Shown: piece by piece, positions 3,025 to 62,774 of the stretch
How the letters are laid out: every line of letters begins with the position of its first letter
Position numbering within the stretch: the stretch's first letter is position 1
Source of the DNA: a virus
Reading direction: 5' to 3' (one strand)
Virus record (IMG/VR): IMGVR_UViG_3300049718_000055
Span: 1 to 64,000 of that record
Length of the DNA stretch: 64,000 bases
Translations under genes and position numbers: made by a program
The notes under the pieces: generated by a model
Told to the model about the DNA's origin: nothing
Databases searched by the model: none
The model's input: the letters and a program-made list of their open reading frames with translations, nothing else

Positions 3025-3202
3025 TCCCAGTCCCTCCATTTTTCCAAATTTTGGAATCCTTGCCGTGCCTTTACGGCTCCTAGATGAATGCTCACGTGCC
3101 AGAACGTCGTTTGACGGTAGCAAGGGGAGCGGAGCCGTAAAGGAAGGGCATATCCTCCAGTTCGTTGCACAGGAGATATTACTAGAATCTCCATGACTAC
3201 CG

Positions 3203-3231
3203 ACTTTATACAGGAAAATGATTATTGTCAA
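3203..3231 (-). promoter_or_regulatory. Sigma70-type promoter
   Basis: TTGACA-17bp-TAAAGT in an intergenic position. Confidence 0.7.
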
Positions 3232-3253
3232 GGGGCCTTCGTTGCACTATATA

Positions 3254-3526
3254 TTACGGGCATTCGGGGCATAAATTCGGGGCAATCCAGTTATGAGGGC
3301 AGCGCATCCCAAGCCGCAGAGAGTCCAAGTTCGCGGTCACAGAGGCGTCTTTGAGTGGGGAATCTCCATAAAGTCTCACCGACGCGACTTCTACGGCTCT
3401 GCCGGCAAGTCGGATCGTCACCGGGCCTGAGTAGTGGCGCCGGCATTGGGGGCAGACTTGCGGCGGGTCGTCTCGCACGAAGTCAAGGCCGCAGCGTTCA
3501 CAATGCCAGACGATCACGTTTTTCAT
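3254..3526 (-). CDS. Zinc-ribbon protein
   Basis: CERCG...CPQC and C-terminal CPH/CPEC. Confidence 0.6.
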   Translation of the reverse strand: MKNVIVWHCERCGLDFVRDDPPQVCPQCRRHYSGPVTIRLAGRAVEVASVRLYGDSPLKDASVTANLDSLRLGMRCPHNWIAPNLCPECP

Positions 3527-3952
3527 TTAGGTCTCGTTTGGGATCAAACCGGCACCGGGTTCTCGCAAGCCCAACGGGTAAATTTGGAAGTACGCCTGCC
3601 ACCAGTCCTCAGCAGGTTCAATGATGTACCCAATGTAGCTGCACACGCTACAGCAGAGCAGGGCCGCTTGGACTTCGGCATATCCGTCGTACACTTGGAA
3701 AATTTCTGGCTCGTTGATCCAATGACCGCACGGCCACGCGAGAAACGCCGCGAAAACCGTTGGGTAGATCGGCTTGTAATCCGCATGTTTCCAGTTGCTC
3801 GGTGGGCTCGTCTGCGGCGGCAAGGGAACCACGGGAGTTCCCACGCCTCCAGGTTGGCGGTAAATCAACTGCCCGTTCTGGTAGCCGCCGTTGTAGAGAG
3901 CGCCAACGCGGAACGGGAACAGGGGACCGAACTGTGGCGTTACCTGCGGCAT
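3527..3952 (-). CDS. Hypothetical protein
   Basis: Abuts the downstream gene; CGH...CSVC motif. Confidence 0.6.
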   Translation of the reverse strand: MPQVTPQFGPLFPFRVGALYNGGYQNGQLIYRQPGGVGTPVVPLPPQTSPPSNWKHADYKPIYPTVFAAFLAWPCGHWINEPEIFQVYDGYAEVQAALLCCSVCSYIGYIIEPAEDWWQAYFQIYPLGLREPGAGLIPNET

Positions 3953-4001
3953 GAACCCATTGTCACTCTAATGAGCCATAAAACACAACCGGGAAGTGCG
4001 A

Positions 4002-4274
4002 TCAGACAGGATTCCCTTCCCGGTCCCGAAACTGCCTCCACTGAGCCTTCCCGCGTCCCTGACGAGCTATGGACGCTGCCCCTGGATTCAGCCGCCGCTT
4101 CTTCTTCGTGATCCCCTTGCGGATGTACGTTGCATCTCGGATCTCCGGCGCCAACTCCCAGTCCTTGCTTCCACACAGCTTGCAGTTGGCCGGCGGGTCT
4201 TCGCCAAACTCCAAGTCAAAGGACTCGTGGCAAATCTCGCAAAACGCCCGCCGGACAATGACGATGATAATCAT
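4002..4274 (-). CDS. Zinc-ribbon basic protein
   Basis: CEICH...CKLCGSKDW; TAATG coupling. Confidence 0.6.
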   Translation of the reverse strand: MIIIVIVRRAFCEICHESFDLEFGEDPPANCKLCGSKDWELAPEIRDATYIRKGITKKKRRLNPGAASIARQGRGKAQWRQFRDREGNPV

Positions 4275-5008
4275 TACCGCCCCTTGGCTGGCTCACCGTA
4301 GGTGCTGATGTACTCGTAGAGCCGGTCGGACAACCACTGCTCTACAGGAACACCATCGGCTTCGGCCCATTGTTGCACGGCCTCCCAGTAGCCTTCCTGA
4401 ATCGTCACGATGACTTTGGTGGTCCCGTCAGGTTGCGGTCCAGTCGCCAACCTGACCGCGCCATTTGGCTCCAACGAGACGCCCTCTGATCCGTGCTTGT
4501 TGAGGAGTTCTTCCAGTTCGGTTATTGTCGGCCGCTTCCCCCTTGGCTCTCCACCACACGGCGGCTGCAAGTCCTTGACCGTCTCGGTCCCTACCGCCAT
4601 TGCGGTTTCCAGATCGGCTGCGGCGTCATCATCGCCAACTGCGTGATGATCGCCTGCCGGCCGCGGCTCATCGACTTCAAGAAATTCGGCATCGATTACC
4701 TCGTTTCCCGACTCTTTCAAGGCCGCTTCGAGTCCTTCATCATGTGCAACAATCTTTTCCGGCGATTCCAAATTTTGGAAAGATTCTCCGCCGTTTTCAG
4801 GCTCTAGGTTACCGGGGGTTTCGTTCCCCTCTCGGACCTCTAAAACCGCCTCTGGAACAGGTATCTGCTGTCCCTCAACTGTGGATTTATCTGTCACCTT
4901 GCTTGCCTCCTTTTGCGGCTTAACTCGTTTGTTCCCACGCGCTTTCATGCCCTTCCCGATCTGCCTCTTCTTTTGTCCCTCAACCATGATAAATTTCCTC
5001 CCATCCAC
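4274..5008 (-). CDS. Hypothetical protein, possible C-terminal ribbon-helix-helix
   Basis: Long ORF; C-terminal VIVTI...AEADGVPVEQWL. Confidence 0.6.
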   Translation of the reverse strand: MDGRKFIMVEGQKKRQIGKGMKARGNKRVKPQKEASKVTDKSTVEGQQIPVPEAVLEVREGNETPGNLEPENGGESFQNLESPEKIVAHDEGLEAALKESGNEVIDAEFLEVDEPRPAGDHHAVGDDDAAADLETAMAVGTETVKDLQPPCGGEPRGKRPTITELEELLNKHGSEGVSLEPNGAVRLATGPQPDGTTKVIVTIQEGYWEAVQQWAEADGVPVEQWLSDRLYEYISTYGEPAKGR

Positions 5009-5028
5009 AGAATCATACTACGAAAACG

Positions 5029-5337
5029 CTACTGTTGTTGGGCTGCCTTCCCTATCTTTCTCTCAACCCATGCGTAGGAACCGTGCGCTGTGAGCCTCTG
5101 AGCCGTCCTGTGGTCTTTGCCGCATGGTCCCCAGCCTGTCACCGGCCCAGTGCTTGTGACGACGCGGCAGGCGGTAGCTGGGCGCACTGGAGGGGCGGTG
5201 TGGGGCGCGGTCTGGTGCTGTGGCGGCAGGGCCTGCTTGACGGTCTGCGCCTTGCATCGATAGGACAGAAGAAACAGGGCGATCAAAAAGAACAGCCAGA
5301 CGGCTGCGGCTATGCGGTGGAACGTGCGGTCAGTCAT
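5029..5337 (-). CDS. Putative membrane/secreted protein
   Basis: MTDRTFHR then a hydrophobic stretch; AAGGAG SD. Confidence 0.55.
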   Translation of the reverse strand: MTDRTFHRIAAAVWLFFLIALFLLSYRCKAQTVKQALPPQHQTAPHTAPPVRPATACRVVTSTGPVTGWGPCGKDHRTAQRLTAHGSYAWVERKIGKAAQQQ

Positions 5338-6450: not shown

Positions 6451-6468
6451 GCGTGGAGGGAAGCCTTT

Positions 6469-13075: not shown

Positions 13076-13486
13076 TCAGCAAGTGTCGAGAGGATCTATG
13101 AACGTGCTCATTTTGCGGCTTCCCTGAAGGCTGTTGCACCATGGACACAGTGCGCGATTCTGAGGTTTCATTTTTCCTGTTTTAGGGTCAAGGACTTCAA
13201 TGCGATCATCCTGCTTGCCTCCACTCCTAGAGACCTCGTGCCCAAATTGAGACTCCGCCTTTGGGAGTCTGCCGCCGCGGGTCTTGCATTGCGGAGAAAT
13301 CTGGAGGCCGCACCTTCCACCCTGCCGGTCCAGCATGACAAATTTCCTCCGCTGATACTCGTCGGAGCCCTTCTTGGAGGTCAACTGACACACTTCTCTA
13401 CCGTCCGGGTAGCGGAATACCCCGTCATCGTCGAGGTACTTGCGTTTCTGCTTTTGCTGCGACGGCTTGGGGAAGGCGGGGATCAT
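13076..13486 (-). CDS. HNH-like endonuclease
   Basis: RQGGRC...C...FGHE...ALCPWCNSLQGS. Confidence 0.6.
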   Translation of the reverse strand: MIPAFPKPSQQKQKRKYLDDDGVFRYPDGREVCQLTSKKGSDEYQRRKFVMLDRQGGRCGLQISPQCKTRGGRLPKAESQFGHEVSRSGGKQDDRIEVLDPKTGKMKPQNRALCPWCNSLQGSRKMSTFIDPLDTC

Positions 13487-13899
13487 GCGGACTCCTCCGA
13501 TTCCAAATTTTGGAGTGGCTTCGGCTGGAACACAACCTGTTTCCATTCCTCCATCATCTTCTCTGCGGACTCTTGGCCGTATATTTCTCCAAAGGCTTCC
13601 CTTACGTCTGCGATGATTCTTCGCTCTCCCCATCCCGCCGATAGAGCATCGCTGCTAAACTGCCGAAGGCACGGAGAAACCGGCATCTTCCTCTCGTCTG
13701 CCAACTTCTGCAATCTATCGAAGATAAATGTCAGCGGCAGCCCGTAGGTATCTCGGAAGAAAAACGTCTTCGAGAAATAGATCATTCCTCTTGCCATCAA
13801 GAGGAAATCATTGATCCGCGCAAAGACAGTACCAAGGAATACCCCTACCGCAGTACCATCCTTATTCTCTTCGATTACAAAACCCGGTTCTTGATACAT
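13483..13899 (-). CDS. Hypothetical protein with AlaRS-like DTYGLPL motif
   Basis: FFFRDTYGLPL resembles AlaRS FKLYDTYGFPL; GGAGGG SD. Confidence 0.55.
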   Translation of the reverse strand: MYQEPGFVIEENKDGTAVGVFLGTVFARINDFLLMARGMIYFSKTFFFRDTYGLPLTFIFDRLQKLADERKMPVSPCLRQFSSDALSAGWGERRIIADVREAFGEIYGQESAEKMMEEWKQVVFQPKPLQNLESEESA

Positions 13900-16241: not shown

Positions 16242-16519
16242 GATAGGTCGCTCAGTTCAATGATTTCACGAGGCCAGGGGAAGCGGGTTCCCTCTTTCAA
16301 ATAGTTCTTCAGGCCGCGCTCCAATTCTTTCTCGTCAAGATCGCTCAACCCCTCAACGAAGATGCCGATGAGTTCTTCGTCTACTACGCGGTTTTTGTCG
16401 AGAGCCGCATACTTGTAGAGGTACACCCCAATCAATGCAGTCCGCTCTTGGCTAGGCGTTAGCGACTGCGGCTGCGACTGCTTCACGATTGCCTTGCCTG
16501 ATGGTAGCTGCCTCGCCAT
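16238..16519 (-). CDS. Putative helicase loader/inhibitor-like protein
   Basis: Lies between the initiator-like gene and dnaB; LSDL...RFPWPREI. Confidence 0.5.
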   Translation of the reverse strand: MARQLPSGKAIVKQSQPQSLTPSQERTALIGVYLYKYAALDKNRVVDEELIGIFVEGLSDLDEKELERGLKNYLKEGTRFPWPREIIELSDLS

Positions 16520-17081
16520 GCTTGCCCCCTCCCTCTGCCGGCTTGTTGAACCTGTCCAAAGGCCCAGCCGCATATTCATCCAACCTTCCAACCCAAACCC
16601 ATAGCGGCTGAGTACGAGCGCCGGCACGGTGTACCACTATGCTCGTCTTACGATGATTCAAAGCCTTACGCCAATCTTCTTGAGTCCACCGCTGGTGCTC
16701 CGAAAGGAACCTGCGAATTTGTACCCCATCTTTCCCGCTCATCTCAAACGGTAGCGCAGGATTAAGGAAATTCCAAAATTTGGAAAGATCGTCTACGAAC
16801 AACCTGTACCTCTCCGATTCTAAATTTTGGAGTACGACCCCCTCGCCGGCCTTCACTACCCCACATCTCCACCTATTCTTCGGTGCCTTCGCTACAAGCT
16901 CAGGAGCCGCTACAGCCGCATCCTTTAGCCCATCCAGCATATTCCCTGTCTTGCAGCGCACAAGGCCAGCCAAGGCCGCTGTGGTAGCCTCTGACCCCTC
17001 TGCAATCTTCACGGCGACATAGGCTAGGACGCCGTTGGACGACAGCCGCTCGATGATCTCTGTGTTGATTGAAACTTCCAT
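16452..17081 (-). CDS. Putative replication initiator-like protein
   Basis: Position upstream of loader and dnaB; wHTH-like N-terminus. Start uncertain (track gives 17168). Confidence 0.5.
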   Translation of the reverse strand: MEVSINTEIIERLSSNGVLAYVAVKIAEGSEATTAALAGLVRCKTGNMLDGLKDAAVAAPELVAKAPKNRWRCGVVKAGEGVVLQNLESERYRLFVDDLSKFWNFLNPALPFEMSGKDGVQIRRFLSEHQRWTQEDWRKALNHRKTSIVVHRAGARTQPLWVWVGRLDEYAAGPLDRFNKPAEGGGKHGEAATIRQGNREAVAAAVANA

Positions 17082-19032: not shown

Positions 19033-19234
19033 CCCTCTTATCCCTCCTCAAGAATTGGGCATCCGTTTTGGTAACTCGCGACTTCCGAGTTGCCTGATTC
19101 AACGCTCGCTCCAGATCCCACCGGGTCACCTTCGCGGCCATCAGTACCTTCCGCCCCGCGCCGGCCAGTTCGTCCACTCTTTCCTCGCGCTTCCTGCGCC
19201 GCTCCGTGCTCCGTTTCCTCTCCCAAGCCCTCAT
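19019..19234 (-). CDS. Small basic hypothetical protein
   Basis: Coupled to neighbours. Confidence 0.45.
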   Translation of the reverse strand: MRAWERKRSTERRRKREERVDELAGAGRKVLMAAKVTRWDLERALNQATRKSRVTKTDAQFLRRDKRDEIR

Positions 19235-19587
19235 CCCTTCTCGACCTCCACCAACTCCAGCGGCGAGTCCGTGCTCTTCACACGGAACGCCTTCCCCTTC
19301 ACTTCCACTACCAATGGCCTACGGTTTCCCGTATCGTCAAACATCCAACCAAACAATTCGTCCACCCTCACATCAAAGTACCGCCCAATCTGAAATGCCA
19401 ACTCCAGCGAAGGACTTGTCCGATGCTTCAAAACCGCTTCGGCATGGTTCCTCGATATTTTGAAGATGTCCGCAAACTCCCTGATGCTCAAACCGTGTAT
19501 CCGTGCCAACTGGTACAAGAGCGGCGTTGCCAGCGTTTCGTACACCGCCCGCTGCCGCTCTATCGTGCGCTGGAGGTTAGTGGGCAC
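19231..19587 (-). CDS. XRE/Cro-family HTH regulator
   Basis: GLSIREFADIFKISR...PSLELAFQIGRYFDVRVDELF. Confidence 0.85.
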   Translation of the reverse strand: MPTNLQRTIERQRAVYETLATPLLYQLARIHGLSIREFADIFKISRNHAEAVLKHRTSPSLELAFQIGRYFDVRVDELFGWMFDDTGNRRPLVVEVKGKAFRVKSTDSPLELVEVEKG

Positions 19588-19727: not shown

Positions 19728-19907
19728 AGTCTCCTCACTTCTTCGGCGCTTCGGCCGGTTTGGTTTCCAATTTTTGGAGCGGCTTCCGCGGCAAAGACTT
19801 CCTCTTCCCAAGCCAGATGTCCGCCAATATCGGACACCCCATGAAATGAACGCCGCGAGTCGCAGCATCGCCGCAAATCTTCTGGCAAGCAGCTTCCTTC
19901 TCGCCGT

Positions 19908-20156
19908 TCATATCTTCATATTCCTATTGATGCCGTCGATGACATCCTGCACGGTCTTGAAGTTCTCCGCTTCCTCGTCGGGGATCTCAAGATCAAAATC
20001 CTCTTCAATTTGCACGACGATTTCAACCACGTCAAGAGAATCGGCCCCGAGGTCGTCCACAAGGGTTGACTTTGGGGTCACTTCTTCTTCATCCACCATC
20101 AACTGTGTGGCGATGATGGCCTTCACTTTTGCTTCAACGTCCATGCCTTCCTCCAA
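19908..20156 (-). CDS. acpP: Acyl carrier protein
   Basis: [34 protein letters not shown]. Confidence 0.95.
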
Positions 20157-22411: not shown

Positions 22412-22663
22412 TTACAACAAAAGAAACCGAAGTTCATTTACAGTAGTCCTGATCTCCCGCAGACGGTTCAGGTAAAACACCACTTCGCTGTTCGTCAGAT
22501 GGTAGAACCTCCGATAAGGATCATCCGCCTGCTGCCACTCGTGGCCCTCGTGTTCCTTCCCTTGATGCTCCATAATTTCATGCACGAAGAAGTATTTCTT
22601 ACACGCTCGGCACACTACGAAATCGCTCGGCTCGTGACTTTTGTCTTCCATCTCACCCTCCAA
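22412..22663 (-). CDS. Hypothetical protein (C2H2-like)
   Basis: CRAC...H...H. Confidence 0.55.
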   Translation of the reverse strand: MEGEMEDKSHEPSDFVVCRACKKYFFVHEIMEHQGKEHEGHEWQQADDPYRRFYHLTNSEVVFYLNRLREIRTTVNELRFLLL

Positions 22664-22675
22664 AGTTTGGAATGC

Positions 22676-23489: not shown

Positions 23490-23738
23490 TCAAAGTTGAG
23501 TTACTGCTATTGGATAGTCTCCGGGTTCAACCTGAACCCGAAGCTGCTGATTACCGCGCTGGCTCGTCAGTGATTCAAAGCCCTCGTTAAGAAGAGCCAC
23601 TTGGTATGCTACTTCCATCATGGCTCGATACATGGCTACATCTGTTGTCTTATTTATAGCCAGCAGTGGACCTTCATCTCTCCAAACCTTATCCGCCTGT
23701 TCTATTACCCCGGCTATCTGATCGCTTGTCATCCCCAT
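23490..23738 (-). CDS. Hypothetical protein
   Basis: MGMTSDQ with GGAGGG SD. Confidence 0.55.
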   Translation of the reverse strand: MGMTSDQIAGVIEQADKVWRDEGPLLAINKTTDVAMYRAMMEVAYQVALLNEGFESLTSQRGNQQLRVQVEPGDYPIAVTQL

Positions 23739-23864
23739 GCCCTCCATTTCCAAATTTTGGAATCTGCGACGTTCCCGGTTCGGCGGATGCGCCACCCCGC
23801 CAACTGCACGGCCTTCACTGAACCGTTCCGGTATTCCAGCACTCTCGCTCAAGGTGCCGGAGTC

Positions 23865-34800: not shown

Positions 34801-37800
34801 TTTTTGGAATCTCTTCTGCTTTTACCTCTGGCTGCGGTTCTGGCTTCTTCTCCTCTTTAGGAGCCTCATAACGGTTTTGCAGAGCCGCTTCAAATTCCTC
34901 CTGCGTTACCGGCTCAAACTTCTTCCCCTGTGATTTTGCGATCTTCTCCAACTCTGGACGAAAAGCAACATTGAAATAGTCCGCGGCGGTGTGGAGTTCT
35001 TGCCCTTCTACTTTCGGAGCAAACAACATTTCCATCCCCGGCTCACCAACAATCATGTCATTCAAGGCGCCATTGAGACGTGTCGTTTTTGAATCAAGAA
35101 GAGCGACATAGACAGCTTGCGTAACGCGGCTCGGCTCGTCTGGTTTACCTAAGAAGAAATCTCCGTTCCCATAGACGTGATTCCATGCCGGTATCGGCTT
35201 GTCGCCTTCTCTCCTGAATCTTCGAGTCTTTGCCGCCGCCGAAACAGCCTCAGTAACTTTCTCTGTGAGACCTGGATAATAAGCTCTCAGTGCTGTTACC
35301 GATCCAATTGCCTTTGTCAGAGAGGATTCTGCATCAGTTCCGCTTATCAGCCGCACAGACTCTACATCTAGAATATGAGATCCGACAAGAGCGAGAACAA
35401 ACTTATCCTTCCCCGCCTTGTTGAGAGTGGCATCCTCCCCAACGCTATCGAACCATGCCGCATTTTCGGTAGGTGGAATATGGAAATACTCTCTAGCTTT
35501 TTTGGCAAACCAATACGGATCATCGTCAATCGCCGCTCTTACGGTCGAGATGTCGTTGCCAGCTATTTTACTGGCAATCTCACTTAGGATTCCATCCTTC
35601 CCATCCAAACGCTCTTGATGGTCGGCATCGGAAAGTAGTTTCCCGTTGCTTAACGCCTCTACGTTTTCTCCTACCTGGGCGGAACTGCGGTCGTTGAATA
35701 ATCTTCCAATTCTAGCCGCTTCACCCACGGTGTCTATCGGCTTATCCAAGACCCGTACAGGGATGTAGGTTCTTCCATCATCGGGAACGTGTTTAATACC
35801 TACCTTAGCGGAGAACTTTGCTACGGCATCATTGAAAACAATCATTTCCGCATCGCGGGCCTTCGTATCCCCCATCCGAGAAATGTTCTCAAGCCACTTC
35901 TTGAGCCGTAGAAGTCTTGTGTTCCCTCCAATTACACGGCCATACGAATCGAGAATCGCTGGACCATTCTCCGGCCCATATCCTGTATCAAAATAAAGCC
36001 GATGCGTGAAGTTTTCAGGCTGAGCTTCCCCTAAGACATCTTTCGTCCGATTCTCATCGAAATCTCTGTACTGCATTTCCTTTGGAACATACTCTTCGTT
36101 GTCCTCCAGATTGTTTCCATTCCACCTGTGAGAGACAATAGGAGCTTCAATGTCCATAAGAGCGTACTGCCCCGGGTGAGATTCCTTCCCTTTGTTGACC
36201 TGGGTAGGATCGCCACGACGGGCTATAAGAATTCCCCCTCCACTTGGATAATCGCCCTTACCTGCGGCTTTCCCTACCGCATCCGCGGTTTGCTGCACTG
36301 CACGATGAAGCGTGTCCGTTGCCTCTTTTACGGCTTGTGCCCTCTTGTCAATATCCTGTTCCGTAGTGCCGGCGTTGACATCAAACGCATCACCTATCGA
36401 CCGAACAACCTCAGCAACAGCGGCCTCCTGCCGACCCTCTGCCGCCTGAACGTACTCCTTTGCCTCTTCCGCGTTACGAGGTTCCGGCGCGGGACTTCCC
36501 GCCCTGTCATTGACCCCTTGAGTCGCTTGCCGATTGTTCTCAACCCACACGGATTTAGATGCGGCCTCCGCTAACTGCTCCGGCTTATTGAAAACGATGC
36601 TGTCTCCCTTGCCAACAATCCTGCGCACTACATCGCTTGGGTTTAAGGGATTGAGGTCGTGCTGTGCGCCTCCAGAGGAAAGATACAAGTCTCCGTTTTT
36701 CCTCTCGCTTACGGTCCAAGTGCGCCCCTTCCAGTTAGCGTCTTGAACTGTGTTCCCCGGCTGCAACTGAGCGATCCTCGCCAGAGGATCTTCGCTGCCA
36801 GAGAGTTTCTGACGAACCAATGCTTCGACCGGAACACCTTCCCTGTCGGCTACCTCTTGAAGTCTTCCGGCCGCATATTCAGGATTGCTTGCCCAACCAG
36901 CGTCTCCGACCTGGGTGAGAAGATTTATAAGTGACTGCTCGGTGTCTGGCGCCGGACCCTGCTCTCCCTCTTGCGGATTTGTGCGCTCTGCGCGGCTCTG
37001 CCGGCGCCGGTTCGAGTAATCCCTCACACGCGCCAGTTTCTCTTCAGGAATAGGCTCTGCCCCTGTCGCCAGCAACTCTTGGTCAATCGAAGCAACCGCC
37101 CGCTGTGCGTCCCTGTCCCGCTCTTCCCGAGACAACCTTTCTTCTCTTGTCATCTCCCCGTAGCGGATACGTCCATAAGCCGCTAAATTCATTGCCAGAT
37201 TAGAGTAAATTCCATCCTTCTTCAAAGGAATTTTTTGTCCATCTGGACCATGAAGAAGCCCGTCGGCCCCAAGTTCCCAAACATTGCCTCTGCGGTCAAC
37301 AATCCTGTCTCCAGACCGCGTGAGCATATTCAGGTTTTCGTTGGTCAGATCCCATGCAGACGCTTCAGCCTGGGAGAGAGTCGCATCTTTCTTCTCGTAG
37401 TCCACTCCAGACTTTTCAAAGGCTTCATCGAATTCGTGGTTGAATTGCTCTCTTCCATTTGCGAACGGACCTTCTACGCCCTCACCACGAGCAGCGTCAT
37501 GCTCGTCTGGTAGACGCTCATCACCGCCAATCCCGGTCATGTCTTGAGCGTGGCGAGAATCAATTTCCTTCGCAATCAACTGCTCTGTGACATTTCCTAG
37601 ATGATCTTCCTTTGCGGCATCTTCGGCTGTTGTGGTCCTGAGAGCTTGAATCTTGGCAAGCGTTCTCGCCGACTCCTCATCCTCAACACTCGCGGCCGTC
37701 TCTGCTGATCCGAAGTACCCTGTGGAATTTAGATACTGCTTCTCCCCTGTTTCCTCGTCTTGGACATAAACCCCAAACCCGCTGCCGACTGGCTCGACGC

Positions 37801-39682
37801 CGATATACGCTTTCTGCTCAAGACGGGTTACGGGGCCATAAACCTCTTCGCCATCAACAACCGTCTTCGGAATTACTTCCGTGGCTTGTGGGCGCGGAGT
37901 CTCTTTCTCACGCTCCTCTCTAGCCTTTACGTTCCGCTGCCTTGCGGCCTCGTTGTCGGAAATGATTTTCTCGCGCTTTACTGTCTCCGCCTTTTTGTTC
38001 TCCTCTACGGCTTTGCGGATTGACTCCTGAACCGCGCTCTCATGCTGCCTTGCAACAAGCTCTTCCCGGTCTGCATGGATTTTCCTTACAGCCCGTTCCG
38101 CCGCAATCGGATTCCAGGATTCTCTTAATGCTGTGCTGTGACGATATTGAATCCGTTTCAGGTTTCTTTCGTCTGCCTTCCCTATGAGATCATGCGCTCT
38201 CTGGAAATAAGGGTCATCGTTCCATACCTTGTCGAGTACAATCGACTGCTCTTGCGGAGTTTTTAATTGCCCAAATTTCTTCCCGTCAAATAGTTCCTTA
38301 GAGGCATCATCAAGATGGCTCGTGACTACCGCCTTGGCAGCATCTTCTTTAATTCCATGCGCCAGCATTGCAAGATTGCCAAGACCGGAAAGGCCAAATT
38401 CAAGCGTTTCTGAAATATCCCCCTTCTTTGCCGCTTCCATTGTCTGCTGATAGTCCTGCCCTACTCCAGCGGCCATCTGAATCTTGAAGCCATAATCAGC
38501 AAGAGTGGAGACGGTTCTGACTGTTCTCGCAACAGCAATAGGAGCTTCCCATCCCATTTGTTCTGGAAGGCTTGCGCCCCGTGAGGCCACGATAATAGCC
38601 ACCATTGCAGGATTGGTTAGAGTTTCCCCAAGCCGCATCGAGGCATTTGAAATTCCGGCATTACCTTTTGCTACTATTCCTTTCCACTTACTTGTCTCTC
38701 CAACCCTGTCGGCCCATGTATTGTTTTTTGCCCTGATAAGGTCTGTGTCCCCTCCTTCAATACCTACGGATTTTGATGCGAGAGAGACTAGGTTGGGATG
38801 CTCCGCGTGTGGCTCTGGAATGCCCAGCAGTCTAGCGGTATTCGCTATTCCTCCCTTGATTTCATCCCACCAATTTCCGCCGGCAACTTCGAGCCTCTTC
38901 GTTGCTCTGGCAAGATCGGTAAGTCCTGCGTATTCCTGCTTTCGCTCCTCATTCCACCCTTGCTCACTGGCATAGGCATACCCTTCAGCATAGTGCTTCG
39001 CATACTCCTCTGGGGTAGAAAATGAGTGATACGCTATCTCCGCCGGGTCCGCAATTGTACGAGAGGTGTCAAAGCGATGATTTTTAAGGTCTGATTCTTC
39101 TTTTGCCTTGTGATCTTGCGCCCTCTTCAATGCGCTCTGGTATACGCCTCCCTGCTCATCTGGCGTGAGGGTTTTCTTCTCTGCATCTTCCCACTGCAAA
39201 GACATAGCATATTCTTCACCCCTTGCGGGATTTAGATGATGCAGTTGCACACCATCCCTGTATCGGCTGACTCTTTCAATTGCCCTGTCTTTGCTTTGCC
39301 CTTCGTTTATAGTGCGGGCATAGATTCTCTGCTCGGGTGTCATCCACGAATCGTCATACGTTCCGCTCTGCATACTGCGGGCATTTTCCGATTCGACTGA
39401 CGAAGGCCCAATTGTCGCATGGTGAGGGCCGGCGCCTGTCGCTTGGAGAATCTTTTCCTGTGGGGTCTGAACAGCGGTTGCACCGTGCTTTTCAGCCAGT
39501 GCCGCGAAGTCTGTCTTTGGGGTCTTACTTACATTTTGAATAACAGGTTGGGCAGCTTGAGACTTCGACGAACCTCCAAATTGCTTGGCGAGACTCTGGT
39601 AATCGACGTTTGGGCCTTCCTTCTTTTGCCCAACTACGCCACCAAATTGTCCTGCGAGTTTTTCATAATCAGTCGGCATCAC
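28838..39682 (-). CDS. Giant polyvalent internal virion protein (DarB-like): ParB-like domain, zincin motif, Strawberry-notch-type SF2 helicase
   Basis: GPAIL...IGGNTR; TTVTHELWH; GTGTGKT, DEAG, SATPF, AGGIG, EQTLGRPWR. Confidence 0.8.
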   Translation of the reverse strand: MMPTDYEKLAGQFGGVVGQKKEGPNVDYQSLAKQFGGSSKSQAAQPVIQNVSKTPKTDFAALAEKHGATAVQTPQEKILQATGAGPHHATIGPSSVESENARSMQSGTYDDSWMTPEQRIYARTINEGQSKDRAIERVSRYRDGVQLHHLNPARGEEYAMSLQWEDAEKKTLTPDEQGGVYQSALKRAQDHKAKEESDLKNHRFDTSRTIADPAEIAYHSFSTPEEYAKHYAEGYAYASEQGWNEERKQEYAGLTDLARATKRLEVAGGNWWDEIKGGIANTARLLGIPEPHAEHPNLVSLASKSVGIEGGDTDLIRAKNNTWADRVGETSKWKGIVAKGNAGISNASMRLGETLTNPAMVAIIVASRGASLPEQMGWEAPIAVARTVRTVSTLADYGFKIQMAAGVGQDYQQTMEAAKKGDISETLEFGLSGLGNLAMLAHGIKEDAAKAVVTSHLDDASKELFDGKKFGQLKTPQEQSIVLDKVWNDDPYFQRAHDLIGKADERNLKRIQYRHSTALRESWNPIAAERAVRKIHADREELVARQHESAVQESIRKAVEENKKAETVKREKIISDNEAARQRNVKAREEREKETPRPQATEVIPKTVVDGEEVYGPVTRLEQKAYIGVEPVGSGFGVYVQDEETGEKQYLNSTGYFGSAETAASVEDEESARTLAKIQALRTTTAEDAAKEDHLGNVTEQLIAKEIDSRHAQDMTGIGGDERLPDEHDAARGEGVEGPFANGREQFNHEFDEAFEKSGVDYEKKDATLSQAEASAWDLTNENLNMLTRSGDRIVDRRGNVWELGADGLLHGPDGQKIPLKKDGIYSNLAMNLAAYGRIRYGEMTREERLSREERDRDAQRAVASIDQELLATGAEPIPEEKLARVRDYSNRRRQSRAERTNPQEGEQGPAPDTEQSLINLLTQVGDAGWASNPEYAAGRLQEVADREGVPVEALVRQKLSGSEDPLARIAQLQPGNTVQDANWKGRTWTVSERKNGDLYLSSGGAQHDLNPLNPSDVVRRIVGKGDSIVFNKPEQLAEAASKSVWVENNRQATQGVNDRAGSPAPEPRNAEEAKEYVQAAEGRQEAAVAEVVRSIGDAFDVNAGTTEQDIDKRAQAVKEATDTLHRAVQQTADAVGKAAGKGDYPSGGGILIARRGDPTQVNKGKESHPGQYALMDIEAPIVSHRWNGNNLEDNEEYVPKEMQYRDFDENRTKDVLGEAQPENFTHRLYFDTGYGPENGPAILDSYGRVIGGNTRLLRLKKWLENISRMGDTKARDAEMIVFNDAVAKFSAKVGIKHVPDDGRTYIPVRVLDKPIDTVGEAARIGRLFNDRSSAQVGENVEALSNGKLLSDADHQERLDGKDGILSEIASKIAGNDISTVRAAIDDDPYWFAKKAREYFHIPPTENAAWFDSVGEDATLNKAGKDKFVLALVGSHILDVESVRLISGTDAESSLTKAIGSVTALRAYYPGLTEKVTEAVSAAAKTRRFRREGDKPIPAWNHVYGNGDFFLGKPDEPSRVTQAVYVALLDSKTTRLNGALNDMIVGEPGMEMLFAPKVEGQELHTAADYFNVAFRPELEKIAKSQGKKFEPVTQEEFEAALQNRYEAPKEEKKPEPQPEVKAEEIPKIGIEPPAEPKAETEKGIKPPPKTRSEKEVAKDVLLNQVREQGYVDYEGLKTFVYADESTKENAKWHMKNFHLVSEAIWEFEKPEGVERKDALKWVLERKKILSSIERDKYFERGRGRTEWDEIGKTSRVYLHEKADKTTVTHELWHAFLPFLSDEDLRALNTITGPTKALWDGKSRADLVGKVLEEFSERAIGGIEKYNRDENPKLFSAETGKILAKLKEIFQQVYKKWREDPLRPFRVTDDAKETLDRIYHVTGMDPADEFLTETEAAEKAKKRIKNPSDVVDPIEQARKDTGAIFVRRDVKGVIEARTHEGAKDVKNIPGKTVVFAFDDYAKAVMAFTPIGRETRYGSSGIQADAAQLIEMDDGNWGVKFNTKGNVPPTVMFQESQPETRGEMGARRNQLKRELSALPRHKILDKQFLQMQIDDLENKIAAEYGTEERAPKTDPELAHKVMEERKNERANRVREGTHEAAGIQRPPTVDRVSGKTELGMPRHDGAGGSPAIRGFGVDRVEPIRMLPLRETNDPVVGKTADDAPETEESWKKRTGKAGMSTESPLPIWAITERTARILDEDKHPGQAPTVQIVMSALQRGDGALVASGTGTGKTWTAMGIISEFGRDREAGDKPLTLYITRNRPLLEKTADEPAKAFGVDLSLDTPKFGIENGTYGVSYQTALRNPVYQNIKWDMVIADEAGEARNWFKKAENKKGMSQGQMLMAIMQNAKKGVYMSATPFHTPLEVGYLEKLGLWKKGGYEEFLKSNFKTYYKDKTLVAELDPVKMAKLRQQLIQRGQMVSQTLSYEGFNVHFGFVPMTSAMKRGLDTISGLMERARTRTKLTEGLSPKSISAYEAQFTKAFLEREMIPNVIEMAKRDIEKGYSIIIASPTTDEDLFRKERSGEPTAFQQMDDAMNGQFSRLLPRLPNVFDALQAEFGDKIGNYSGVNQSDTGREKVRKDFQDGKLPMAYLSIPAGGIGSDWNDTKGDKPRLMYVLGPPYSGVLLEQTLGRPWRDGTKSDVHVVFLGTDAAPQVRIMKELVAPRMRSIRAAVHGIKDSLATAMENYSDVERTRAEQDTLNFANGNEIEVKAADFGVRHAGRVVGIDSWDAIQIPPASEAMNKGLRTGAQEGADWTNMYQDKERAFTPPPTNVKAEKAINDIAESAAKNPDIPKETIALGAAHASEVAGITPEGIDPAEAGSYAMKGELQSHGFTYDPETGEWSGPLYHAKKMLGRDTSGLEERRLGESEEPTFGQRIKEKIRIPAINAARKIGMQDKVRRWFDKEYANYQKRTLGMNFRMRALGVSRKSGYLEKTGAVFDKLDDYQQKQMGISGNFQMRLIDIFKENKLEWNSDGPVEGKVKEWLRRPGHDDVREVWDVKEGRVASNDPRINKAAEELRLLMDEANELATKEGVHREDGSIYDVPNNPHYMPHETDWDMELTDSETGEIRTLSEVCDDKTLDDVAKLRYLEKERQRLKVGTGDAHRWLGELSRDRERRLKRPRNPNVTTKRTVNHPFYKKDIWALNKYFDQLGSAVALESTLGHDMGKVGSLIADVPSSALRKDLTENLKLYFEYQDWNTRVGRMYRFMQPFEVITKMSLSPISVAFHNVHAGQLGLKPWFVGNYRMFRHPKERMREKFYVGVVTPRMNPALIEGKNFGVAKEMLKATGFSDVYNWQRATVGEIAWAWMDLDVLSDLKAGGKRAETSRRLLKDRMLLSDDEINKAVANNRWDEESKWKAERVFANKVAFTEQPEQMPRMAKLSMSEGLGDAEKNLHAVAHAAYNLQSFQIKSYSGIKEWYFDEVFHHRNFRPLLPFFLLYPAAGFALMNLKAGVKHGAQKAFEGATGQSHTRDSWDNLLEDYRDLEKHPWSGALKICLDSLFIGMANDRMKMWTDIGMMAAEGEEKKLYKMMGYMATDELDRLVGSIYKDIFMAGSTVPKAADDTSKLKNPTVKKFGKNLEKESAKEAKRIAWPLGTIPKVNEWSGTKKIQPPPK

Positions 39683-47905: not shown

Positions 47906-49090
47906 TCAGTCCTTGTAAGGATCAAATTCACGGGCAGATGCCATAGCCACTCCGACCGGGGTCAACACGTGAAGAACTTTGATCGAATCTCCACACGCCG
48001 CAAGAACTCCGTCTAGCCGTTTGTAGCAGTCTGGAGATTCGTCTAACCCGGCGCCACGCAGTTCAATTCCGGCCTTCCTTACCCATCCATCCATCATCTC
48101 CTGAGTTACTCTTCCAGGGCGCTTGCACTCGCCTGTCTTGCGGTCGAAAGTCCCCTTCGCCTCCATGCGACCCATTGCACGGCCAGCGCCGTGAACGGTT
48201 GAGTAAAGGCTGTACTTGGCATCCTCGTTCTCCATGCCCTCCAAGATGACGGACTTCTCGCCCATCGTTCCTCCAACGAATCCCTTCTGTCCAGGGAACG
48301 CCGGAGTGGCTCCCTTGCGAACAACCCACAGCATCTCACCACCATGCTCTTCCCGCCATGCGAAGTTGTGATGGTTGTGAACCTCTTCAATAGCCTTAGC
48401 TCCAAGAATCTTAATCACGCGGTCGCAGACCCAGTTCCTTCCTGCATAAGCGTACTCGCCGGCAAGAGACATAGCCTGTAGATATTCGCTGCCTAGTGCG
48501 CTGTCTACCGACAAGACACATGGCTCCACATCCATTCCGTCTTTTGCTCCTGCTGCTTTCAAAAACCACGTTGCAATCTTATGCCCGAGGCCGCGAGAAC
48601 CGAAATGAACACCCACCCAAACGCGGTCTTCTTCGTCTGTAAAAAGATCTACATAATGGTTTCCAGAACCCAAAGTCCCAAGTTGCTGATGAGCCATTTC
48701 CTTGAGCGGGGAGGTCATTGAAAGACTCCAGGCATCATGCTCGAAAACCTGATCGTCTACACGCTCGTCGTCATTCTTTCTCCCAACCCCAAAACTGACT
48801 ATATTCCATACGTCATCCATTATCGGCTTGATGCTGCCACGCAACATCCAGCCTTCCATGTCGGTCAACACGGCCTTGTTTCCACAGCCGATGTCGTATC
48901 CCACTCCGGTTGGGCTGATGGAATTTCTATAAGCCACAACACCGCCAATGGGCACACCGTACCCAAGGTGGTTATCTGGCATCAATGCCACTTTGTCCGC
49001 GGTTTTCGCACAGGTCCGAATCTGGTTGAGAGTCTTTTCTTCAGCTTCCCCAAATACCGGTATAGTTCCATCTACTAACTGCATCCCCAT
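47906..49090 (-). CDS. rtcB: RNA 3'-phosphate/5'-OH ligase RtcB
   Basis: MPDNHLGYGVPIGG; VGYDIGCG; GTLGSGNHY; HFGSRG; HNHHN; RKGAT; HGAGR; DESP..YK. Confidence 0.96.
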   Translation of the reverse strand: MGMQLVDGTIPVFGEAEEKTLNQIRTCAKTADKVALMPDNHLGYGVPIGGVVAYRNSISPTGVGYDIGCGNKAVLTDMEGWMLRGSIKPIMDDVWNIVSFGVGRKNDDERVDDQVFEHDAWSLSMTSPLKEMAHQQLGTLGSGNHYVDLFTDEEDRVWVGVHFGSRGLGHKIATWFLKAAGAKDGMDVEPCVLSVDSALGSEYLQAMSLAGEYAYAGRNWVCDRVIKILGAKAIEEVHNHHNFAWREEHGGEMLWVVRKGATPAFPGQKGFVGGTMGEKSVILEGMENEDAKYSLYSTVHGAGRAMGRMEAKGTFDRKTGECKRPGRVTQEMMDGWVRKAGIELRGAGLDESPDCYKRLDGVLAACGDSIKVLHVLTPVGVAMASAREFDPYKD

Positions 49091-51262: not shown

Positions 51263-51345
51263 TATGTTTTTCTGCTAACCTCTTCCACACTTCTCGGAGA
51301 TCGGCATTCAAATGAAACCTGTGCGGCATGTCAACCTCCAAAATT

Positions 51346-51419
51346 TGGAGCGGTTTGCCGGATTTGAACCGGCGCTTTCGCCCTGGCAAGGCAACGTCTT
51401 ACCACTCGACTAAAACCGC
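51346..51419 (-). tRNA. tRNA-Gly(GCC)
   Basis: TTGCC-TTGCCAG-GGCGA. Confidence 0.9.
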
Positions 51420-52967: not shown

Positions 52968-52992
52968 GTGAATTCCAAACTTTGGAATCAGT

Positions 52993-57660: not shown

Positions 57661-58083
57661 TTACTCTCCGGTCCAGAGCTTCTCAAGCACTTCCTTGACC
57701 CCAAGCATCACCATCCCGTAAGGGGTTCTATAAATCCCCCCTTTACCTGGACGCAAAAATTCCGAGAAATCCTGCTCAAGTAAATGGCCGTTCGCGGATC
57801 TTATCTGCTCAAGCGCCCTGCCTGCCATCATCAAGTTCTGCTTGCGGTGGTATTCTTGATTTTCTTGACTCTCCATCTCCCTTTCCAGTTCATCCTCGAA
57901 GTCTTGGCCGATGATTCGTTCGAGGATAGACATAGCAGCATTCATGCGCTTATGAATAAATTCCTCTTCAGGGTCATTCTCCGGCTGTCTCGTGATTCCT
58001 GCGTAGGTTTGCATGGCCCTCTCCAAGTGCGGTTTAACGAATTGGATATACTCTCTGGTTCCGCAAATAACGTCCGGTTGCAT
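57661..58083 (-). CDS. Hypothetical protein
   Basis: GGAG SD. Confidence 0.65.
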   Translation of the reverse strand: MQPDVICGTREYIQFVKPHLERAMQTYAGITRQPENDPEEEFIHKRMNAAMSILERIIGQDFEDELEREMESQENQEYHRKQNLMMAGRALEQIRSANGHLLEQDFSEFLRPGKGGIYRTPYGMVMLGVKEVLEKLWTGE

Positions 58084-58105
58084 GGTTACTCCAAATTTTG
58101 GAATC

Positions 58106-59968: not shown

Positions 59969-60250
59969 CACTGTCTCCCTCATTTCTTTTGCGTTGCAAG
60001 GCGAACTGTATTTTCCTTGACCCCGCCGCCGCATCTTCTCTTTGAATCCAGGCGGGCATTTCACATAACCTTTAAACACTCTTCCCATCAGAATTCCTCC
60101 AGTTCCACTCTCATGGCCTACTCCATCCTCTCGCTCGTGACTTGTGACTTCGAGAATTACTCTTGTGATGCCTTCGAGGAGTACCGCACTGCGTAGCCGC
60201 GAAGAACAGTCCTATAACAACCACAACGGCAATCACTACTCCCAGTGCGT

Positions 60251-60454
60251 TCAAAGTTCCTCCAGTTCTACGGTAGCCACCTTGAACCGCTTCCCGGCGT
60301 TGGGACAAGAAATGTCGGTAGGATGCGGATAATAGCGGCCCGTTCCTTCAATCCTTGCGTTCTTTGATGTTGCCCACATCTCAACTCCGCATCCTTCGCA
60401 ACAAATGGAGCGCGGGTACGCCGTCGCCTTCCCTGCCTTGTCCTCTGCCATCAC
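60251..60454 (-). CDS. Small Cys/His protein
   Basis: CEGCG...HP....CPNAGK. Confidence 0.55.
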   Translation of the reverse strand: MMAEDKAGKATAYPRSICCEGCGVEMWATSKNARIEGTGRYYPHPTDISCPNAGKRFKVATVELEEL

Positions 60455-60591
60455 GGTCTCCGTTTATGGCGGAACTTTTTCTTGCCGCCATTAGAACTCA
60501 AAAACATTCCAACGAAAAACAACGCGAGTAGTCCCACAAAAATCCATCTAGCCATCACTTCAACTCTCCTCTCCCAATCCGGCAGACCGGC

Positions 60592-60894
60592 CTACTTCTC
60601 CCTCACCCACCAGCAGTTCTCAACATTGTCCCGAAGATGCGTACCTGCGGCATTCAACACAAACCGCGAATCCAGCGTTCCAGGCGCCACAATCTCCAAG
60701 GACCGCGACCGGTTGCGAGAATCCTTCAGCAAACCCTTCTCCTTCAGATGCCCGATATGCTTGGAAACCGTTGCTAATGATTTCAGCCCGAGTCCGTCCG
60801 CAATTTCATCGAACGATGGAGAGTAGCGATTTGTCTCAATGAACCCCTTTATGAAGTCGAGAACTCGTCTTTGACTCTTCGTGACAGCCGCCAT
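60592..60894 (-). CDS. LexA-type DNA-binding domain protein lacking the peptidase domain
   Basis: TKSQRRVLDFI......YSPSFDEIA..LGLKS.ATV..H...L..KG.L.....RSRSLEI. Confidence 0.88.
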   Translation of the reverse strand: MAAVTKSQRRVLDFIKGFIETNRYSPSFDEIADGLGLKSLATVSKHIGHLKEKGLLKDSRNRSRSLEIVAPGTLDSRFVLNAAGTHLRDNVENCWWVREK

Positions 60895-60938
60895 TTATTC
60901 CCCTCCACTTGATTAGCGTACCACGTTGGCAGTTTCCG

Positions 60939-61217
60939 TCAAGGGGTAGAGGTTTTCAAATCTTCATCGGACCAAATTTTCACCCTCCCGCAAGGCATAG
61001 TGAAACTCTTCGGGTCTGATACGGACTTCTCTACGTTCACTAAAGCCCATGCCGCACAATGCTTACACTCGATCTTCCATGAACCTTTGTCGGGAGCCTG
61101 CGGGAGTTCTACTGTACAGGAATCTCCCGAGCATACTGAAGCCGCTGGAGGAAAACCCCTCCAACTCTTGCGTTCTTTCGCGTTCTCTGGAATAAAGAAG
61201 AGATAGTGTTCGCTCAT
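60939..61217 (-). CDS. Cys-containing hypothetical protein
   Basis: C...ECKHC...PC. Confidence 0.5.
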   Translation of the reverse strand: MSEHYLFFIPENAKERKSWRGFPPAASVCSGDSCTVELPQAPDKGSWKIECKHCAAWALVNVEKSVSDPKSFTMPCGRVKIWSDEDLKTSTP

Positions 61218-61237
61218 AGATTTTCCAAACTTTGGAA

Positions 61238-61969
61238 TCAGCCCTTCGGGAATTCCTTCCACTCGCGGCCGTCGAGCAGCGGAGAATGAACCAGCTTACC
61301 GTTGACCTTCATCTGCTTCAGAAAATAAGGAACGCCGGCCGCAGAGCATTGGTCTCTCAGTGAACGGAAAGCATTATCGTCCACGTCACGCGAACCGACG
61401 CCGCTCTCACAACCTCCAATCACCCAATTTATCCCAGTTGGAGGATGGAGCCAAGATTCAACGTGGATCTCTTCGAGAAGAGGCTCTGCGCTAATTCCGT
61501 GGACCACCGCTGGAATTCTCGTGATAAGAGGTATCCTCTTGTTCGCAGATTCTTGATTCTCCGTGGAAGTCATCAACCACACATTCTCATAGCCGCCACC
61601 CCAGTCCGGCGGCAAGCAATCCGCAATCCTCTCAGCCCTCTTCGTGCAAAGCTGGTAGATGAACTGCGGAGTCCGCCGCATAATATCCCACGCTTCCTCT
61701 CTCCACGGGTCCGCTTCCTCGATAAAGAAGTCAGACCATGAATCAACGAAAATGTACTTGATGTCGGGATATTTCTCAGTGTTCTTCGCCCACCGCAGAG
61801 GCGCGTTAAATGTGACCGGGTTTGATCGCACGACCACGTTCGGATTCTGTCCGTAGCGCGTCTTCTCCGAAAACATATAGCAGTTCTTGCAGCCGGCGCT
61901 TACCTTGTGGCATCCCTGCCAGCAATTCCAAGTTGCGTCGGTCCACGCGATTCCAGTTTTGCTTCCCAT
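61238..61969 (-). CDS. DUF5131 (phage Gp37/Gp68) family protein
   Basis: TGIAWTDATWN.WQGC.KVSAGCKNCY; SWSDFF; SAEPLL; WVIGGCESG; VPYFLKQ. Confidence 0.93.
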   Translation of the reverse strand: MGSKTGIAWTDATWNCWQGCHKVSAGCKNCYMFSEKTRYGQNPNVVVRSNPVTFNAPLRWAKNTEKYPDIKYIFVDSWSDFFIEEADPWREEAWDIMRRTPQFIYQLCTKRAERIADCLPPDWGGGYENVWLMTSTENQESANKRIPLITRIPAVVHGISAEPLLEEIHVESWLHPPTGINWVIGGCESGVGSRDVDDNAFRSLRDQCSAAGVPYFLKQMKVNGKLVHSPLLDGREWKEFPKG

Positions 61970-61973
61970 AGAA

Positions 61974-62774
61974 TTACCCTCCGTTTTCCAAAGTTTGGAG
62001 TTCGCGCGGATCTGTACCTTTTACGTGCGAGAGAGTTCCATCTTCAGATCTCGTCCACTGACGCGCTTCATTGATGTCCATTTTCTTACTGACCTCAGTG
62101 TGCAAGTCGCATCCAATCGAGTCTGCAATCACACTCAAGCAAATAGCCACGTCCGCCAATTCTTCCTTAGCGTGTCCATGATTCCCGCAATAAAGATCAA
62201 CCTCAAGCTCGTCTAGTTCTTTCCGTAGACGCCTCAACCTATCCATAGGGAAACCTCCGCCATCGTTTTTCTTGTACCAAGTTCCAATACGGCGTTGCTC
62301 TGCCGAACGAAGACGGGGAGAGGTCTTATTCAACTGGCTTCGGATTTCTCCCAAGTCTGCTGTGACTAAATCAGCCATCTTCACCATGAGGTCCGGTTCT
62401 CTCATTCCAGGGATGTAGACATACACGTGGCAGTTTGCGCCTACAGCCCAGCCCATTTCCATCGAAGCACTAGGACCGCACGGCATGACCATCACGCAAG
62501 CGTCTGCCTGTTCGAGAGCATCCATGTCTCGATGAAAACCCTCAATAGCTCGTGGATTTTTCAGGCCATCAATGTACTTCTGAATATCACTCGGCCATTT
62601 CTGCCAATCAGGATCAATCTCCGACCAGTGGAATCCTCCCGGCCCGTGGATTCCTTCACCCCAACCGTCACCATCTTCTTTGAAGTCATAGACTCTGTGA
62701 CCGTCTTTTCTTAGAACCTTTACAACCTCTGGCTGGAAATCATTTCTCCAAGAACTCGCAACGTAAATGTTCAT
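61974..62774 (-). CDS. Nucleoside deoxyribosyltransferase-like domain fused to MazG-like pyrophosphatase
   Basis: IYVASSWRN...D...L..AD......PCG.SA..E.GWA; C-terminal KELDEL...EELADV....KKMDINEARQW. Confidence 0.8.
   Translation of the reverse strand: MNIYVASSWRNDFQPEVVKVLRKDGHRVYDFKEDGDGWGEGIHGPGGFHWSEIDPDWQKWPSDIQKYIDGLKNPRAIEGFHRDMDALEQADACVMVMPCGPSASMEMGWAVGANCHVYVYIPGMREPDLMVKMADLVTADLGEIRSQLNKTSPRLRSAEQRRIGTWYKKNDGGGFPMDRLRRLRKELDELEVDLYCGNHGHAKEELADVAICLSVIADSIGCDLHTEVSKKMDINEARQWTRSEDGTLSHVKGTDPRELQTLENGG

Follow-up and report, generated by a model that had tools for sequence, protein, structure and literature searches.

A dispersed 17-bp palindrome in a peat phage genome and a ParB/KorB/Noc-type protein that may read it

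Introduction

The plasmid RK2 carries about a dozen OB sites over approximately 60 kb, and Noc of Bacillus subtilis, a chromosomal regulator of cell division with a membrane-targeting N-terminus, has its own set of sites, known as NBS. The core of OB, the site of the RK2 protein KorB, is TTTAGC-G-GCTAAA, a 13-bp palindrome of 6-N-6 form (PMC11790492). Here we describe an array of another 6-N-6 palindrome, TCCAAANTTTGGA, in an IMG/VR phage record (IMGVR_UViG_3300049718_000055; 88,632 bp, linear, approximately 91% complete). The stretch analysed, subsequently called the window, is the first 64 kb of the record. The phage is labelled G000, and three relatives found via the capsid protein are labelled G001, G002 and G003. 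Comparison of these sequences indicates that the palindromes are most likely to be docking sites for dimers of a DNA-binding protein encoded by the phage, and a ParB-like protein encoded at 1981–2808 of the window is a candidate for this role.

Dispersed palindromes have been reported in phages before, but never explained. In the Cluster O mycobacteriophages (Corndog) a 17-bp dyad repeat, TGTTCGGNNNCCGAACA, whose arms are invariant and whose centre is free, occurs over 30 times. About one third of the copies are in genes, many are in short intergenic gaps or near the 5′ ends of genes, and their function is unexplained (PMC4351075). These repeats are not at predicted promoters, and the authors did not find them to be tightly tied to translation starts. 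The genome encodes a protein with a ParB-like domain, to which the repeats were not linked (PMC4351075). The start-associated sequences of Cluster K and the stoperators of Cluster A are, by comparison, asymmetric and oriented with transcription (PMC4351075).

The Cluster O repeat is the closest published phage pattern to the array described here, and KorB with OB is the closest mechanism. Like Cluster O, the present case combines a 17-bp palindrome, a non-temperate phage, dispersed copies that are partly in genes and lie off the promoters, and a ParB-like gene; the sequences are however unrelated, the Cluster O arms being 7-N3-7, and the host phylum is another. With KorB and OB the phage has in common a ParB-family protein without a dedicated partition role and a 13-bp 6-N-6 core in multiple dispersed copies, at a similar density, with some sites far from promoters and one at the operon of the candidate reader itself. 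It differs in that the phage is lytic-looking and not a plasmid, that the two proteins are only 17–18% identical, and that the phage system is known here from sequence and a model. In addition, half of the phage sites stand in a fixed order of stop codon, site and Shine-Dalgarno (SD) sequence, and many are in genes. A resemblance to KorB and RK2 had been suggested in the first-pass annotation of this DNA, and it is supported by the form of the site, its dispersal, the copy at the operon and, as described below, the fold of the protein.

Results and discussion

The palindrome and its conservation

There are 12 exact copies of TCCAAANTTTGGA in the window, at the places given in the first-pass annotation, against 0.00 expected from 100 dinucleotide shuffles. 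The whole record contains 17 exact copies, and 22 with at most one mismatch, against 0 for the reversed control. The density is one copy per approximately 5 kb. There are 20 exact copies in G001, 17 in G003 and 7 in G002, again with none for the reversed control, and the 61 exact sites of the four phages form the pooled set used below. Four near copies had also been claimed for the window. Three of them have one mismatch (16819, 19766 and 34796), but the fourth (43825) has two, and may be a chance match because 3.4 matches with up to two mismatches are expected.

The conserved unit is 17 bp long. It reads A-(T/C)-TCCAAA-N-TTTGGA-(A/G)-T in G000 and G001, and A-(G/C)-TCCAAA-N-TTTGGA-(C/G)-T in G002 and G003. 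The centre may be any base, the motif is strictly palindromic, and the pooled flanks are symmetric. Among 74 half-sites, the base at ±7 is T in 53 and C in 18, and that at ±8 is A in 47. The extension to 19 bp proposed earlier is thus correct as far as ±8, but not at ±9, where G is found in merely 26 of the 74. The two ±7 bases of one site are chosen independently and are often unable to pair, from which it follows that the sequence is conserved and not a stem, and that there is no hairpin signature. The sites are more evenly spaced than random in G001 (coefficient of variation, CV, 0.55) and in G003 (CV 0.46), with P ~0.001 in each case.

The peptides quoted earlier for copies that are translated are right (FQNLE at 4767, LQNLE at 13502 and 16819, SKFWN at 16772, PKFG at 32822, PKIG at 34796 and LQTLE at 61987). 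In gene 4274–4987 the site is found in the same codon column in G000, G001 and G002, despite the proteins being only 38–58% identical and the flanking codons different. In gene 16452–17081, which encodes 209 residues, the near copy of G000 (16819) has orthologues in G001 and G003 that are exact, a further exact copy has arisen in G000 at a distance of 47 bp, and the site of G002 is elsewhere in the gene, a pattern that reads as turnover. Of the 17 G000 sites, we could match approximately 11 to sites in G001, some of them in aligned high-scoring segment pairs and others by deduction from gene order. Since the in-gene copies hold their codon position in spite of protein divergence, selection acts on the nucleic acid, as had been argued in the first-pass annotation. 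These comparisons give good support to the view that the palindromes act in cis as DNA sites for a dimeric DNA-binding protein of the phage, and that relatives have kept both their sequence and their position.

Distant relatives (L046, L047, L048, L051 and L078) have variant spellings, namely CGTCCAA-NN-TTGGACG, GTCCATATATGGAC and TCCAAATTTGGA, the common pattern being GTCC, six to seven AT-rich bases, and GGAC. G004 (L095–L100; 108 kb, capsid 55% identical) has no palindrome array. It has 29 copies of the asymmetric sequence GGGA(A/G)TGTTAG, which are all on the same strand and cluster where the small genes are, at the two ends of the genome, often three in a row approximately 25 nt apart; these look like phage promoters or an iteron set. 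Another palindrome, GCGTGA-N3-TCACGC, is present in G002 in one exact and five one-mismatch copies (0.35 expected), but it is not conserved in relatives and is probably not meaningful.

The motif does not appear to belong to the host. In a scan of 401 Acidobacteriota genomes as host candidates, the true host itself not being identified, 45 had a match, with a maximum of four per genome, which is the level of the reversed control; this tally includes G071, whose one match has no effect on the result. The density in the phage is thousands of times higher. A 14-base version searched against one genome per prokaryote species gave scattered single hits among the matches listed. One 2.4-Mb bacterial genome, G021 (L237), has 12 copies of TCCAAA(C/G)TTTGGA on five contigs, in pairs and triplets 21 and 42 bp apart. 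This is a repeated element or a binding-site array unrelated to the phage.

The ParB-like protein

The features of the ParB-like operon that concern us here are as follows.

1981–2808, minus strand: ParB/KorB/Noc-family protein of 275 residues, with G72-x-x-R75-x-x-A78, a helix-turn-helix (HTH) domain and C-terminal helices
3203–3231, minus strand: sigma-70-like promoter TTGACA-17-TAAAGT of the ParB-like operon; the site is downstream of it in the leader, and not on the promoter

The protein matches a PHROG ParB family, and has profile matches to solved ParB proteins and to sulfiredoxin, although the Pfam ParB_N match in a translated search is weak (E 0.011). Residues G72, C74, R75 and A78 are invariant in 33 homologues. 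The AlphaFold model has a pLDDT of 85.6, and its best Foldseek matches are Noc (7NFU), KorB (8QA9) and ParB, with a probability of 1.00 over 200–246 columns that cover the N-terminal and DNA-binding domains. To judge from the model, the protein has a true ParB/KorB/Noc fold with the GxxRxxA motif. By analogy with these proteins it is predicted to be of the CTPase type, binding and hydrolysing cytidine triphosphate (CTP) and closing into a clamp. Noc, which gives the best fold match, is likewise a ParB-family CTPase without ParA that has many dispersed palindromes; a comparable division role or a membrane-targeting helix is however not evident in the phage protein.

No ParA (PF13614) was found in G000, G001 or G002, while the same search detected it in 14 of 14 control genomes. 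The ParA-type Walker ATPase that would mark a ParABS system is thus missing, and the protein is without a partner. For the same reason an analogy with the dispersed centromere sites of N15, which had also been drawn, is weaker, there being no ParA/SopA in the phage. It is worth adding that one class of ParB protein has been tied to activation of thymine dioxygenase (PMC13229309). This was considered for the phage protein and rejected, since that class lacks a DNA-binding domain and no Tet/JBP gene was found in the phage.

The site is closely associated with the gene. As noted in the first-pass annotation, one copy precedes the operon: this is the site at 3043, in front of a small open reading frame (ORF) and the ParB-like gene. 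Among viral and metagenome loci whose proteins are 36–78% identical, a site is found 14–50 nt upstream of the ParB-like gene in most lineages, the exceptions being G002 and L296, and a second site is often found 90–176 nt after it. In G000 the 56-residue ORF (2854–3024), which is absent from G001, has been inserted between the conserved site and the SD of the ParB-like gene; the SD and the spacer before the ATG are otherwise alike in the two phages. In L283 and L297 the gap that separates the site from the preceding stop codon holds a GC-rich hairpin whose loop is TTCG. Different multi-copy palindromes are found near the gene in more distant homologues: GTATCGATCCGATAC between the -35 and -10 boxes in L299 and L303, CTCCAGAACTGGAG at about +10 in L301, GTGCGATATCGCAC in four copies in G013, and TGACAGNCTGTCA in seven copies in G010. 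The 6-N-6 form, which is also that of OB, recurs in several of these distant lineages.

We hypothesise that the reader of the sites is this partner-less ParB/KorB/Noc-type protein, and that the sites would be loading sites of the KorB/OB kind. We give this a probability of roughly 0.5.

A number of observations weigh against this proposal. Although G000 and G001 have the same 17-bp site, their ParB-like proteins share only 48% identity and come from separate deep clades. The preference for T or G at ±7 follows the phage backbone, as does the XRE protein described below, and not the ParB tree, and the predicted recognition-helix residues differ among phages that share the motif core. In G002 the 3 kb on either side of the ParB-like gene are free of sites. 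The distant phages with a ParB-like gene hold only three to seven copies of their palindromes, so presence of the protein does not in itself imply a large array. Furthermore the upstream site is inherited, and its recurrence therefore represents conservation and not many independent events. In G000 itself the sites are no more evenly spaced than random (CV 0.89). Finally, G005, a relative with a complete genome, carries approximately 20 copies of TCCCAATTGGGA, a related palindrome, but a hidden Markov model detected no ParB-like gene in it.

The array of G005 (L101–L106; 102 kb, terminal repeats) consists of approximately 20 copies, with at most one mismatch, of GTCCCAATTGGGAC, spread over the whole genome and mostly away from gene starts. 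Neither a ParB-like nor an XRE homologue was found in it. A search for its reader gave five proteins that adjoin sites and have no Pfam match, of which one, of 271 residues, is unrelated to ParB. The ParB-like gene itself looks mosaic. When the G000 protein is compared with that of G001 (L080:2710–3570) they share a C-terminus, the last approximately 60 residues being approximately 80% alike by eye. A ParB-like specificity residue covarying with the ±7 base was looked for and rejected, since phylogeny or a recombinant C-terminus accounts for the discriminating columns.

The first-pass annotation had proposed that the sites are bound by the ParB-like protein or by another phage regulator. The fold, the GxxRxxA motif, the site before the gene and the likeness of the 6-N-6 form to OB favour the former, while the array of G005 and a second, equally conserved candidate, an XRE regulator, speak for caution.

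The XRE regulator and other readers

The second candidate is encoded within the window.

19231–19545, minus strand: XRE-type HTH protein of 104 residues, rival candidate reader

Dimers of this protein could use the sites as operators, and act as a genome-wide repressor or timing switch; a variant of the idea has it acting jointly with the ParB-like protein, as KorA does with KorB. The repressor of phiC31 acts in a comparable way on its many conserved inverted repeats. The XRE protein matches HTH_3 and a PHROG transcriptional regulator family, and its closest solved relative is the repressor CylR2. It is found only in four genomes and five contigs that bear the palindrome, and not in G004, G005 or G010–G018. 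Between G000 and G001 it is 95% identical, where most genes are 50–85% identical, and the unit formed by a small ORF and the XRE gene is preceded by a near copy of the site in G000 and an exact one in G001. The recognition helix begins with a nearly invariant S-(K/R)-(N/S/T)-H-A, in which the one variable position (N against S/T) tracks the ±7 base (T against G). However, the XRE-bearing records all belong to one phage clade, so both the co-occurrence with the palindrome and the N/S/T pattern could result from shared ancestry alone. In G002, G003, L109 and L111 there is no site within 1.5 kb upstream of the gene, which would be unusual for an autoregulated XRE repressor, and XRE regulators usually have few operators and not approximately 20. 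No integrase was found in the phage, nor any other sign of lysogeny, and a KorA-like clamp lock was not identified in it. On balance we regard the XRE protein as the main rival of the ParB-like protein, but as an unlikely reader of the sites.

The reader could also be some other factor, either another phage protein or a DNA-binding protein of the host. The related array of G005, in the presence of neither candidate gene, favours this, as does the fact that distant relatives share the GTCC-(AT-rich, 6–7 bp)-GGAC theme with differing spacing; most proteins of G000, moreover, have no match in family searches. A host factor is at odds with the background level of the motif in the Acidobacteriota genomes and with the scattered single hits elsewhere, and the lineage-specific changes of the site argue for a phage reader that co-evolves with it. 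A reader of this kind seems rather improbable.

If the ParB-like protein is the reader, its dimers would nucleate at the approximately 20 sites, close into CTP-dependent clamps and slide onto the neighbouring DNA, by analogy with other members of the family. With a site every 4–5 kb, no part of the genome would be out of range of sliding clamps. If KorB on RK2 is taken as a guide, modulation of transcription genome-wide, including that of the operon of the protein itself, would be the likeliest outcome. Organisation or protection of the genome would be an alternative outcome, and the clamps may also serve as roadblocks at gene junctions.

Positions of the sites relative to genes

The sites in the window are listed below, with all start codons referring to the minus strand.

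3043–3055, exact: 19 nt before the start of the 56-residue ORF 2854–3024, and approximately 145 nt after the TTGACA-17-TAAAGT promoter
4767–4779, exact: within gene 4274–4987; same codon column in the orthologues of G001 and G002
13502–13514, exact: last codons of gene 13483–13899, 16 nt before gene 13076–13486; G001 counterpart 80942
16772–16784, exact: within gene 16452–17081; only in G000
16819–16831, one mismatch: within gene 16452–17081; orthologues in G001 and G003 are exact
19766–19778, one mismatch: 39 nt before the small ORF that precedes the XRE gene; exact site 74206 of G001 apparently corresponds (from gene order, unaligned)
22659–22671, exact: 5 nt after a stop codon and 8 nt before a start; GGAG is the SD
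23749–23761, exact: 17 nt before gene 23490–23732; 71142 of G001 is a probable counterpart (from gene order, unaligned)
32822–32834, exact: within the 3613-residue helicase-containing gene (PKFG)
34796–34808, one mismatch: within the same helicase-containing gene (PKIG)
51337–51349, exact: begins in the discriminator base and encoded CCA end of tRNA-Gly(GCC) 51346–51419, 8 nt before an ATG; kept with its flanks in G001 (47261)
52974–52986, exact: 7 nt before a strong terminator hairpin (52967–52939), ahead of a tRNA block; G001 counterpart 45155
58090–58102, exact: 4 nt after a stop codon and 7 nt before gene 57661–58083; nucleotide homology to G001 starts exactly here
61224–61236, exact: 2 nt after the stop codon of gene 61238–61969 and 7 nt before an ATG
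61987–61999, exact: last codons of gene 61974–62774, 18 nt before gene 61238–61969

Proximity to start codons, which had been pointed out earlier, is clear. Eight exact copies of the window are 7–19 nt upstream of minus-strand start codons (3043, 13502, 22659, 23749, 51337, 58090, 61224 and 61987), and in the pooled set the distance from the end of the site to a start codon is 25 nt or less for 31 of 61, compared with approximately 4.5% of random positions. The usual order is stop codon, 0–6 nt, site, SD and ATG. The outer bases of the site are often supplied by the stop codon (TGAT-TCCAAA or TAG-TCCAAA), and in several sites the GGAG of the motif is itself the SD, an overlap that had likewise been reported and is found at 22659, 51337 and 58090. 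Approximately 40% of the sites are within genes. In being short, conserved and repeated at gene junctions, the motif resembles the start-associated sequences and stoperators mentioned in the Introduction; it differs from them in being a strict palindrome and in having so many copies in genes.

Two other placements had been claimed. Two copies were said to be in an initiator-like gene, and there are indeed two, 16772 and 16819, 47 bp apart in gene 16452–17081, but the label of initiator has no family match behind it. A further copy was said to cap an antiterminator; what this amounts to is that the copy at 52974 is next to a terminator. Terminator-like hairpins follow three G000 sites, this one and two beyond the window (66012 and 86546). 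The clear sigma-70-like promoters, TTGACA-17-TAnAGT at 3231, 9186, 51848 and 53478, do not overlap with sites. Enhancer sites for sigma-54 were considered and rejected, as no -24/-12 promoter (TGGYAY-N5-TTGCW) was found in G000 or G001.

The arrangement at gene junctions raises the question of an element acting in the mRNA. A hairpin between cistrons, with a stem of 5–8 bp and a loop of 3 nt, could be read by an RNA-binding protein or endoribonuclease, or could mask the SD until the upstream ribosome terminates, giving translational coupling. The positions just described fit such an element, and so does the orientation of the genes, of which 137 of 151 in the ORF-based gene map of G000 are on the minus strand. 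Five of 14 one-mismatch copies alter position 8 (numbered on the mRNA strand), and none alters the mirror position 6; this bias, however, also fits an A-rich coding strand. An mRNA element would not account for the sites within genes, some of them fixed at the same codon, nor for the even spacing in G001 and G003, and the sites of G005 are mostly away from starts. It is the sequence and not the pairing that is conserved, with no compensatory change at ±7. We consider an mRNA element very unlikely. The order of stop codon, site and SD would be explained mainly by economy, short gene junctions being the cheapest place for a fixed 17-mer in a compact genome.

The sites might alternatively be recombination junctions, or linkers, for exchange of modules between related phages. 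G000 and G001 are strongly mosaic. Blocks of homology to G001 end 1–8 nt from sites at 58090, 69270, 81923 and 84981, and one 3-kb block has a site at each of its ends. Mosaic junctions nevertheless fall at gene boundaries anyway, which is where most sites are, and other sites are inside conserved blocks or genes. The strict palindrome and the even spacing would be left unexplained, and the repeats of Cluster O are reported not to coincide with rearrangements (PMC4351075). We regard a function in recombination as highly improbable.

Genome context

The stretch is present in DNA runs from peat and permafrost, and no RNA run was listed as containing it. The G000 record encodes a terminase and a major head protein, a DnaB-type helicase, and RtcB (47906–49084, among tRNA blocks), and there are 24 tRNAs in the window. 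An acyl carrier protein gene is at 19908–20144 of the window, and a peptide deformylase gene at L006:6630–7238 (record 82630–83238). A megablast of 20 kb of the stretch against GenBank phages gave no matches. G001 is 97 kb long with terminal repeats, and its capsid protein is 94% identical to that of G000.

In a giant ORF of 3613 residues (28838–39679, minus strand) only a central helicase region (AAA_34, ResIII, DEAD) is recognisable. The product is similar to the giant polyvalent proteins that phages and plasmids encode; its relatives are 34–40% identical over parts. Hairpin promoters of the N4 type were considered for the palindromes and rejected, because this ORF has only helicase-type domains and no PHROG match, and is not a virion RNA polymerase.

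Positions 1–370 of the window consist of a 30-bp tandem repeat, whose unit begins GGGCTGCTGCTC, in at least 12 copies that reach the left end of the record. The repeat may encode a 10-residue protein repeat, and may be the reason why the assembly stops here.

Conclusions

We suggest, tentatively and largely by analogy, that large lytic peat phages may use a CTP clamp of the ParB/KorB type, loaded at approximately 20 fixed 17-bp sites, to govern or organise genomes of 90–100 kb. Such long-range control by clamps, in the style of a plasmid, has not been described for phages, although the layout is known from RK2. The present case ties a dispersed array to a ParB-family protein through its fold, the site at its own gene, and the other palindromes in other lineages. 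If the proposal is true, the orphan repeat arrays of the Cluster O mycobacteriophages and similar phages would also be explained. The 17-mer would mark a whole clade of abundant peat phages, and offers a protein–DNA pair that can be tested. Should binding be confirmed, clamp-based long-range regulation or organisation would extend from RK2, chromosomal ParB and Noc to virulent phages.

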